Virus record (IMG/VR): IMGVR_UViG_2718218131_000009
Location: 1 to 44,487 of that record
Reading direction: 5' to 3' (one strand)
DNA: 44,487 nt
Origin: a virus
Lineage: Duplodnaviria > Heunggongvirae > Uroviricota > Caudoviricetes
The translations under genes and the position numbers were made by a program. Each line of letters begins with the position of its first letter. The first letter of the stretch is position 1. The notes under the pieces are model-generated. The model worked only from the letters and a program-made list of their open reading frames with translations, ran no database searches and was not told the origin of the DNA. Positions 6,034-6,734 of this stretch are shown piece after piece.

Positions 6034-6059
6034 AAAAAAGCCCGCCTGAACCGGCGGGC
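6034..6059 (-). terminator. Rho-independent terminator downstream of lom
   Basis: Minus-strand hairpin GCCCGCC-n6-GGCGGGC followed by TTTTTT. Confidence 0.5.
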
Positions 6060-6086
6060 TGTCATAACACTGTGTTACCTGGCTAA

Positions 6087-6686
6087 TCAGAATTTATAAC
6101 CGACACCCACGATGAAACCGTCAGTGCGCCAGTCGCCACTGCCGGAACCTTCATAAGCGACATCAATGGCCACCGATTCGGTCGGGTTAAACTGCACGCC
6201 AGCTCCCCACGCCAGAGACGTGTTGCTGTGGCGACCGTCATCACTTCCGGTCAGCACATCGTGCGTTTTCCCCTTGCTGTCGGTCACCTGCAGATAATCC
6301 CCGGAGAAGGTCGAAACACGGCTGTAAGCCACCCCCGCCATCGCATACGCGCTGAACCATTCATTCACGCGCACAGACGGCCCCGCCATCACGCTGAACC
6401 AGCGGTTACGCACGGAATCTTCATGCCAGCGGGTATCGCTGTAATGCGTTTTTTGTTCATCTTCTGCGTCGGCATAACTGAAAGACGTAATCAGCCCCAG
6501 CGTGTCCGTAAATTCATAACGGTATTTCACGTTAATCCCGTTCAGATTATCGCTGCCGGGTGCGTTCGTACGGGCATGAAGATACCCTGCGCTCAGTGTG
6601 GACTGATGTTCAGACGCCCATGCAGACGCACCGGATACGGCCAGACAGATGGCTGCGGACAAAATGGCTGCACAAACTTTACGCAT
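6087..6686 (-). CDS. lom: Outer membrane protein Lom (Ail/Lom family)
   Basis: Signal peptide followed by a beta-barrel pattern ending in the aromatic C-terminal residues GYKF. Sits immediately after J, the lambda lom position. Confidence 0.9.
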   Translation of the reverse strand: MRKVCAAILSAAICLAVSGASAWASEHQSTLSAGYLHARTNAPGSDNLNGINVKYRYEFTDTLGLITSFSYADAEDEQKTHYSDTRWHEDSVRNRWFSVMAGPSVRVNEWFSAYAMAGVAYSRVSTFSGDYLQVTDSKGKTHDVLTGSDDGRHSNTSLAWGAGVQFNPTESVAIDVAYEGSGSGDWRTDGFIVGVGYKF

Positions 6687-6710
6687 AATTACCTCTCGCT
6701 TTTCTGCAAT

Positions 6711-6734
6711 AAAAAAGGCGCCATTTCTGGCGCC
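6711..6734 (-). terminator. Rho-independent terminator downstream of J
   Basis: Minus-strand hairpin GGCGCC-agaaat-GGCGCC followed by TTTTTT, then the lom RBS. Confidence 0.55.

Follow-up and report, generated by a model that had tools for sequence, protein, structure and literature searches.

The lom gene of a lambdoid prophage lies between two predicted terminators, one of which also occurs without lom

Results and Discussion

Gene Content of the Late Operon

The window analyzed here is the whole stretch of 44,487 nucleotides of the IMG/VR virus record IMGVR_UViG_2718218131_000009 (Caudoviricetes). It contains a complete lambdoid late operon on the minus strand, in which the genes are ordered as Q, DNA methylase, P21-type holin, lysozyme, Rz, terminase, portal, a protease-capsid fusion, the tail genes, lom, and stf. 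The Q antiterminator gene (29093..29473, minus strand; PF06530, E = 2.1e-51) precedes the genes for lysis, head, and tail, which share its strand; the holin, lysozyme, and Rz genes are found downstream of it. The tail gene I occupies 10209-10880 (minus strand). It is followed by J (6756..10148, minus strand), which encodes a tail tip/host-specificity protein of 1130 aa with the full Pfam series of GpJ domains (E down to 1.5e-42). The last ~130 aa of J constitute the receptor-binding domain and are AT-rich (43.8% GC).

The lom gene (6087..6686, minus strand) encodes an outer-membrane beta-barrel protein of 199 aa that belongs to the Ail/Lom family (PF06316, Ail_Lom). The Pfam match has an E-value of 3.8e-125 and a score of 415.6 bits (cut-off 23), and it covers residues 1-199 of 199. 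The N-terminus of the protein is a signal-peptide-like segment, MRKVCAAILSAAICLAVSGASAWA. The Shine-Dalgarno sequence GAGAGG (6692..6697, minus strand), which was read from the sequence, lies 5 nt 5' of the ATG. It is kept in lambda, mEp460, 434, and a Citrobacter prophage, and the annotation of phage 434 marks an RBS at this position. Thus, the ribosome-binding site (RBS) of its own that the original prediction had assigned to lom is present.

The side tail fibre gene stf (4772..6022, minus strand) carries the Pfam domains phage_tail_N (E = 5.9e-69) and Phage_fiber_C. Its likely start is the conserved ATG at 6022; the GTG at 6028 given by the ORF tool is disfavoured by alignment with the stf starts of lambda and mEp460. 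Phage_fiber_C occurs in two consecutive copies, one at stf residues 344-407 and one in the overlapping ORF 4501-4902. A terminator that passes the strict thresholds given below is found after these copies at 4465-4483 (minus strand) and is probably the end of the late operon. Beyond it lies a C-terminal remnant of IS66 (4162-4452). A gene for a DUF4765 protein of 1134 aa (673-4077, plus strand) is located just outside the prophage at its tail-fibre end and is encoded on the opposite strand. The GC content at its 3' boundary, the sole part that was profiled, is ~39%, and the gene may be a cargo of the prophage edge.

The nearest complete Escherichia coli genomes, which come from chicken isolates, are ~97-98% identical to the window across the lom/stf end of the prophage. 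A 3.5-kb query that contained the end of the DUF4765 gene, stf, lom, and the 3' end of J was matched in some part by 5275 of 5426 complete E. coli genomes. The J-lom-stf layout is very widespread among E. coli.

Terminator-Like Hairpins on Both Sides of lom

The gap between the J stop codon (6756) and the lom ATG (6686) is 69 nt long. It contains a hairpin, termed T1 here (6708..6735, minus strand), that begins 20 nt past the J stop. The stem-loop (6716-6735) reads GGGCGCC-AGAAAT-GGCGCC(T) and has 8 pairs, of which 6 are G-C and the closing one is G.U; the GAAA loop is closed by an A-U pair. The stem is followed by TTTTTTATT (6716..6708), that is, by the U-tract TTTTTT at 6711-6716 and then ATT; the 3' stretch down to 6708 is also given as TTTTTATT. 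The hairpin energy is -13.5 kcal/mol, and the fold of the J-lom intergenic region has a z-score of -2.4.

The second hairpin, T2 (6034..6060, minus strand), begins 26 nt past the lom stop (6087) and ends 11 nt short of the stf ATG. The stf RBS, GGGGTGA, directly abuts its U-tract. The stem-loop (6039-6060) is formed by AGCCCGCC GGTTCA GGCGGGCT with 8 pairs (7 G-C), and it is followed by a run of six U (TTTTTT, 6034-6039). Its energy is -16.0 kcal/mol, and the lom-stf intergenic fold has a z-score of -2.1. The span 6034-6734 on which the original prediction was based coincides with the stretch from T1 through the tail of T2.

We examined how far such structures could be expected by chance. A terminator scan of positions 1 to 12000 gave 10 loosely defined terminator-like sites against 13.2 in shuffled sequences, which is no excess. 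A separate loose hairpin scan gave many intragenic hairpins and was non-discriminating. Strict thresholds (7 or more perfect pairs, 5 or more of them G-C, a loop of 3-8 nt, and 6 or more T in 8) were used instead, together with shuffles. When both strands of the whole 44.5-kb window were scanned, only 4 sites were obtained, all on the minus strand, and T1 and T2 were two of them. The number expected from 40 dinucleotide shuffles was 0.1 ± 0.37. In the terminator scan, T1 and T2 were also the two best terminator-like sites in 1-12000. The hairpins that flank lom are not a chance feature. A search of 5800-7000 against Rfam returned sub-threshold chance matches only. Another strong, terminator-like hairpin, CGGGCTGACGTACGCCGTACTCAGCCTG followed by TTTTTTTG (15401-15428, minus strand; -15.4 kcal/mol), is located inside the ORF 15239-15547 and not in an intergenic gap. 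From its position alone, this ORF is a putative T part of the G/T tail chaperone.

The T1 helix is well kept in other genomes. Each of the 80 IMG/VR loci that have a close Lom relative carries T1, as do mEp460 and the window, and T1 was also found in the examined loci of E. coli, Shigella, E. ruysiae, and E. albertii. Across 14 distinct variants, 100% of the cells of the helix are paired, and compensatory double changes occur at two base pairs (GGCACC/GGTGCC and GGCGTC/GACGCC). Judged from the aligned variants, the T1 helix is under selection. In lambda and in the Citrobacter prophage, whose Lom is 69% identical, a hairpin of other sequence with a U-run is found at the T1 position. Two orientations of the T1 loop, AGAAAT and ATTTCT, are seen between the palindromic GGCGCC arms; in loci L006, L017, L023, L024, and L038, the stem is unchanged and the loop is flipped (equivalent to window positions 6722-6729).

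T2 is near-identical in lambda and mEp460. Among its variants, pairing is mostly kept through G.U, with a mismatch in one locus. A terminator precedes stf in every one of the 83 lom loci compared: it is T2 in 57 loci and another terminator in the other 26, which we call class b. The class b terminator (AGCCCG..CGGGCT followed by T7) is strong and lies directly 5' of the stf RBS. In the class b loci, the lom C-terminus is also different (..RF*), and a spacer of 155 nt, which holds an additional imperfect hairpin, lies ahead of the terminator (e.g., L010, 3094-3250).

By their stems, U-tracts, positions, and kept pairing, T1 and T2 are thus predicted to be genuine Rho-independent terminators. 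The original prediction that hairpin terminators follow both J and lom is confirmed by the folding energies, by the strict scan (4 sites against 0.1), and by the kept pairing.

Two other intergenic regions of the operon were used as comparators. The I/J gap contains the hairpin AAACCGCC TCCG GGCGGTTT followed by TGTCGTTTAT (10161..10190, minus strand); the fold of this gap has -21.5 kcal/mol and z = -3.56. The gap after the capsid gene (18408..18494, minus strand) contains GCCC GAAA GGGC followed by T7, plus a second hairpin. A hairpin with a U-run is therefore found in every large intergenic gap of the late operon, namely the post-capsid gap, the I/J gap, and the gaps that hold T1 and T2. Because all of these gaps have one, and J is bracketed in the same way as lom, bracketing hairpins are not diagnostic of morons.

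T1 in Genomes without lom

Phage 21 has no lom gene. Its J stop codon is followed by ACGGGCGCCAGAAATGGCGCCTTTTTTATT, which is T1 and is annotated as a terminator, and then by TGTGGAGTGAATATG, which belongs to stf. An exact-pattern scan detected the same lom-less J-T1-stf junction in 48 IMG/VR contigs, and no lom match was obtained in any of these 48 contigs by tblastn. The C-terminus of J stands immediately before T1 in 45 of them, that is, wherever the contig reaches far enough upstream, and stf stands immediately after T1 in all 48. Because the same hairpin fronts stf in phage 21 and in these contigs, T1 is not specific to lom. The role of a lom insulator, which the original prediction had implied for T1, does not hold. 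On the evidence of these alignments, T1 is a resident terminator of the J/stf junction that is independent of lom.

The borders of the lom indel were determined by aligning the J/stf junction of phage 21 to both junctions of the window, and the 48 further lom-less junctions were used in addition. The indel (6034..6707, minus strand) is 674 bp long, has a GC content of 54.7%, and is placed between the U-tract of T1 and the RBS of stf. It contains a 21-nt leader with the RBS, the lom ORF, and T2. From this alignment, the unit that was gained or lost is therefore RBS-lom-terminator, behind a T1 that is present in either state. The two states are compatible with either insertion or deletion of lom; loss of the segment between the two U-tracts could have produced the lom-less form secondarily.

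The composition of lom is ordinary. Its GC content (55.3%) is close to that of the late operon (56.0%) and of J (55.2%), and that of stf is 59.5%. We considered a compositional signature of horizontal acquisition for lom and rejected it; the deviant part is the C-terminal domain of J. This domain (6860-7080, minus strand) has a GC content of 43.8% (GC3 41%) against ~57% for the rest of J, and it holds several sigma-70-like sites, as would be expected of a recently exchanged AT-rich module.

A mosaic joint is seen inside lom (window 6087-6160, compared with lambda, locus L002). Lom is only 43% identical to the lambda protein overall, yet the two loci hardly differ in the final ~25 residues of Lom, in the 3' untranslated region, and in T2, which is why a joint is placed there. 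The lom alleles appear to have been swapped within fixed flanks.

Lambda-type lom, with the same 43% match, was also found in about a dozen GTDB genomes of unrelated taxa (L145-L156), among them Neobacillus, Kitasatospora, Leeuwenhoekiella, Pseudomonas, Shewanella, Desulfosporosinus, Bradyrhizobium, and Paenibacillus. The coverage of these contigs is low where it is given (about 0.5-10×), and three of them are ~48.4-48.5 kb long. They are almost certainly phage lambda DNA that contaminates the assemblies.

Search for a lom Promoter

We scanned the window and 9 other alleles with a sigma-70 position weight matrix (PWM). No sigma-70-like site was detected within ~170 nt of the lom ATG, and none was detected downstream of T1. 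All of the candidates lie at least 170 nt upstream of the lom ATG, inside the AT-rich C-terminus of J, and before T1. The T1 stem is separated from the lom ATG by 29 nt, and the cassette DNA 5' of the ATG is 21 nt long; no -35/-10 pair is found there. Weak, activator-dependent, or alternative-sigma promoters that overlap T1 fall in the blind spot of such a scan. As read from the sequence, the layout of lom is terminator-RBS-gene-terminator and not promoter-gene-terminator.

A recurrent -35-like TTGATA at ~180 nt upstream of lom was considered and rejected as a lom promoter. It lies within the conserved ATTGATATGCC, which codes for the J motif (V/I)IDMP. Phage 21, which has no lom, carries this TTGATA too, and conservation does not extend to the matching -10.

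Expression of lom in Lysogens

In textbooks, lambda lom is a prophage-expressed gene that benefits the host. The published observations on this issue are divided. Lambda lom has been reported to be expressed in lysogens (PMC1151598, PMC7067206, PMC3594210), and Lom has been called a prophage-expressed, moron-encoded protein in the same sources. Chen et al. found lom transcripts in lambda lysogens and cited earlier work to the same effect (PMC1151598). However, lom was undetected in lambda lysogens in the array study of Osterhout (2007), which also noted how little was known of the lom promoter (PMC2147009). The lom orthologue of Phi24B, which has a different genomic context, showed similar expression in the lysogen and in induced cells (PMC3342100). 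No mapped promoter or transcription start of lom was found in the searchable literature. The small RNA 24B_1 of Phi24B, which was reported downstream of lom (PMC4426718), was considered and found not applicable; lom has a different context in that phage, and its authors found no terminators there.

Interpretation of the lom Locus

We suggest that lom sits at the J/stf junction of a Q-dependent lambdoid late operon, between two terminators that would be of different origin. The explanation that we regard as probable combines a resident T1, a cassette of RBS, lom, and T2, an override of both terminators by Q, and the lack of a visible lom promoter. T2 would restore a terminator directly before stf. 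In lambda, the 27-kb late transcript depends on Q (PMC10695390). Since stf lies past both T1 and T2 and the prophage encodes Q, we infer that both are read through: the Q-modified polymerase would pass them during lytic growth, and lom would be part of the late transcript. With Q present, J, lom, and stf should therefore share one transcript in lytic growth despite the terminators. In the repressed prophage, T1 would stop unmodified polymerase that comes from upstream, such as stray transcription of the tail genes, and T2 would keep lom transcripts out of stf. Any expression of lom in the prophage would then start upstream of T1 or overlap it, and T1 would attenuate rather than insulate. A non-consensus or activator-dependent promoter would be an alternative source. 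What counts against this explanation is that the published expression of lambda lom in lysogens (PMC1151598) implies some promoter activity, which was not located here.

The original prediction had described the organisation as that of a moron expressed from the prophage independently of late transcription. Lom would then be autonomous: a promoter of its own would fire in the repressed prophage, T1 would act as an insulator, and T2 would end a monocistronic mRNA. The parts of this description that stand are that lom is extra DNA at the junction and that it has its own RBS and its own downstream terminator, T2. The naming of lambda Lom as a prophage-expressed, moron-encoded product in the literature (PMC3594210, PMC7067206, PMC1151598) and the similar levels of the Phi24B orthologue in lysogen and induced cells, although in another context (PMC3342100), also speak for it. 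The promoter is the weak part, because neither the 29 nt that separate the T1 stem from the ATG nor the 21-nt leader holds a -35/-10 pair. One array study, in which lom was undetected in lambda lysogens, noted that the promoter is uncharacterised (PMC2147009). In addition, T1 also exists without lom, the GC content of lom is not deviant, and the bracketing by hairpins is non-specific. We therefore regard full autonomy as unlikely.

The opposite possibility is that lom rides along in the late operon as a promoter-less passenger, with its expression essentially confined to the time after induction and due to Q read-through, so that signals from lysogens would reflect a spontaneously induced subpopulation or leakage through T1. 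This is also improbable in our view. The transcripts that Chen et al. reported in lysogens (PMC1151598) argue against it, and an outer-membrane adhesin would have no obvious benefit minutes before lysis. Moreover, lom alleles have been kept and have diverged (the window and lambda share 43% identity), which suggests selection in the lysogen. It agrees, however, with the failure to find a promoter, with a cassette leader of only 21 nt, with the presence of the Q gene, with the array result (PMC2147009), and with the strand, spacing, and composition of lom, which are the same as those of the late genes.

The hairpins may be viewed in yet another way: their main role would be to stabilise 3' ends of the polycistronic late mRNA or to serve as processing barriers in it, rather than to act as stops that matter in lysogeny. 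They would then set the relative amounts of the capsid, J, lom, and stf segments. Similar hairpins after the capsid gene and before J are consistent with this role, and all of the hairpins lie in a Q-antiterminated operon in which termination would be overridden. On the other hand, T1 and T2 have full U-tracts (6 U) right after the stem, a feature that a stabiliser can do without, and the roles of stabiliser and terminator are not mutually exclusive. We consider it quite unlikely that stabilisation is the main role. Since the roles are partly compatible, the likelihoods that we attach to these readings overlap.

It is conceivable, although doubtful, that lom is no autonomous moron but a promoter-less RBS-ORF-terminator cassette that came in behind an earlier J terminator, and that its expression in lysogens is set by partial read-through at T1 of transcripts from fortuitous promoters in the AT-rich, receptor-binding end of J. 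If T1 does attenuate transcripts from the J end in this way, the J allele would co-determine the expression of lom.

Returning to the probable explanation, with a resident T1, a lom cassette, and override by Q, flanking terminators in a Q-antiterminated operon are not evidence of an independent transcription unit. The layout of lom is ordinary biology, and its interpretation as a moron is conventional and partly supported by the sequence. The added value of our analysis is modest: the main new point is that T1 is independent of lom, and the other is that the cassette has no visible promoter.

Comparison with Known Systems

The moron was described from HK97 gene 15 (Juhala et al. 2000, as cited in PMC3594210), and Cumby et al. 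define it by its own promoter and terminator and a usually deviant GC content (PMC3594210). Like a moron, lom is an extra gene of the tail operon that relatives lack; it has a terminator of its own, and its product is an envelope protein of use to the lysogen. The promoter that defines a moron is not visible here, and the GC content of lom does not differ from that of its neighbours.

Extra small genes at the J/tail-fibre junction are also found in other phages. In the Seuratvirus Seurat (KM236243), the junction has a terminator and an additional small envelope gene, as in the window; this gene, which codes for a lipoprotein, bears the annotation "apparent moron" and has a bidirectional terminator, but it is unrelated to lom and is in reverse orientation. 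In Yersinia phage PY54, the junction holds a terminator and the membrane protein ORF24, which is unrelated to lom. From these gene contents, the J/fibre junction looks like a general insertion hotspot.

Lambda (NC_001416, ~18.9-19.7 kb) shares with the window the gene order, the RBS core GAGAGGT, and a hairpin with a U-run between J and lom. T2 and the last ~25 lom codons are nearly identical in the two, and the C-terminal strand of Lom is identical. By contrast, Lom is only 43% identical overall, and the lambda hairpin at the T1 position, UUUUAUUAU, is weaker, with 5-6 bp and about -8 to -9 kcal/mol. Phage 21 (OL657228) has an identical T1 and the same stf RBS and start, but it is without lom and T2, and its T1 directly precedes stf. 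In mEp460 (JQ182728), T1 and T2 stand at the same positions around lom, and both are annotated as rho-independent terminators; it differs from the window in a compensatory pair of T1 (GGCGTC/GACGCC), in the C-terminus of J, and in a longer stf. The arrangement of terminators around lom is thus already known, being annotated in the GenBank records of mEp460 for both elements and of phage 21 for T1.
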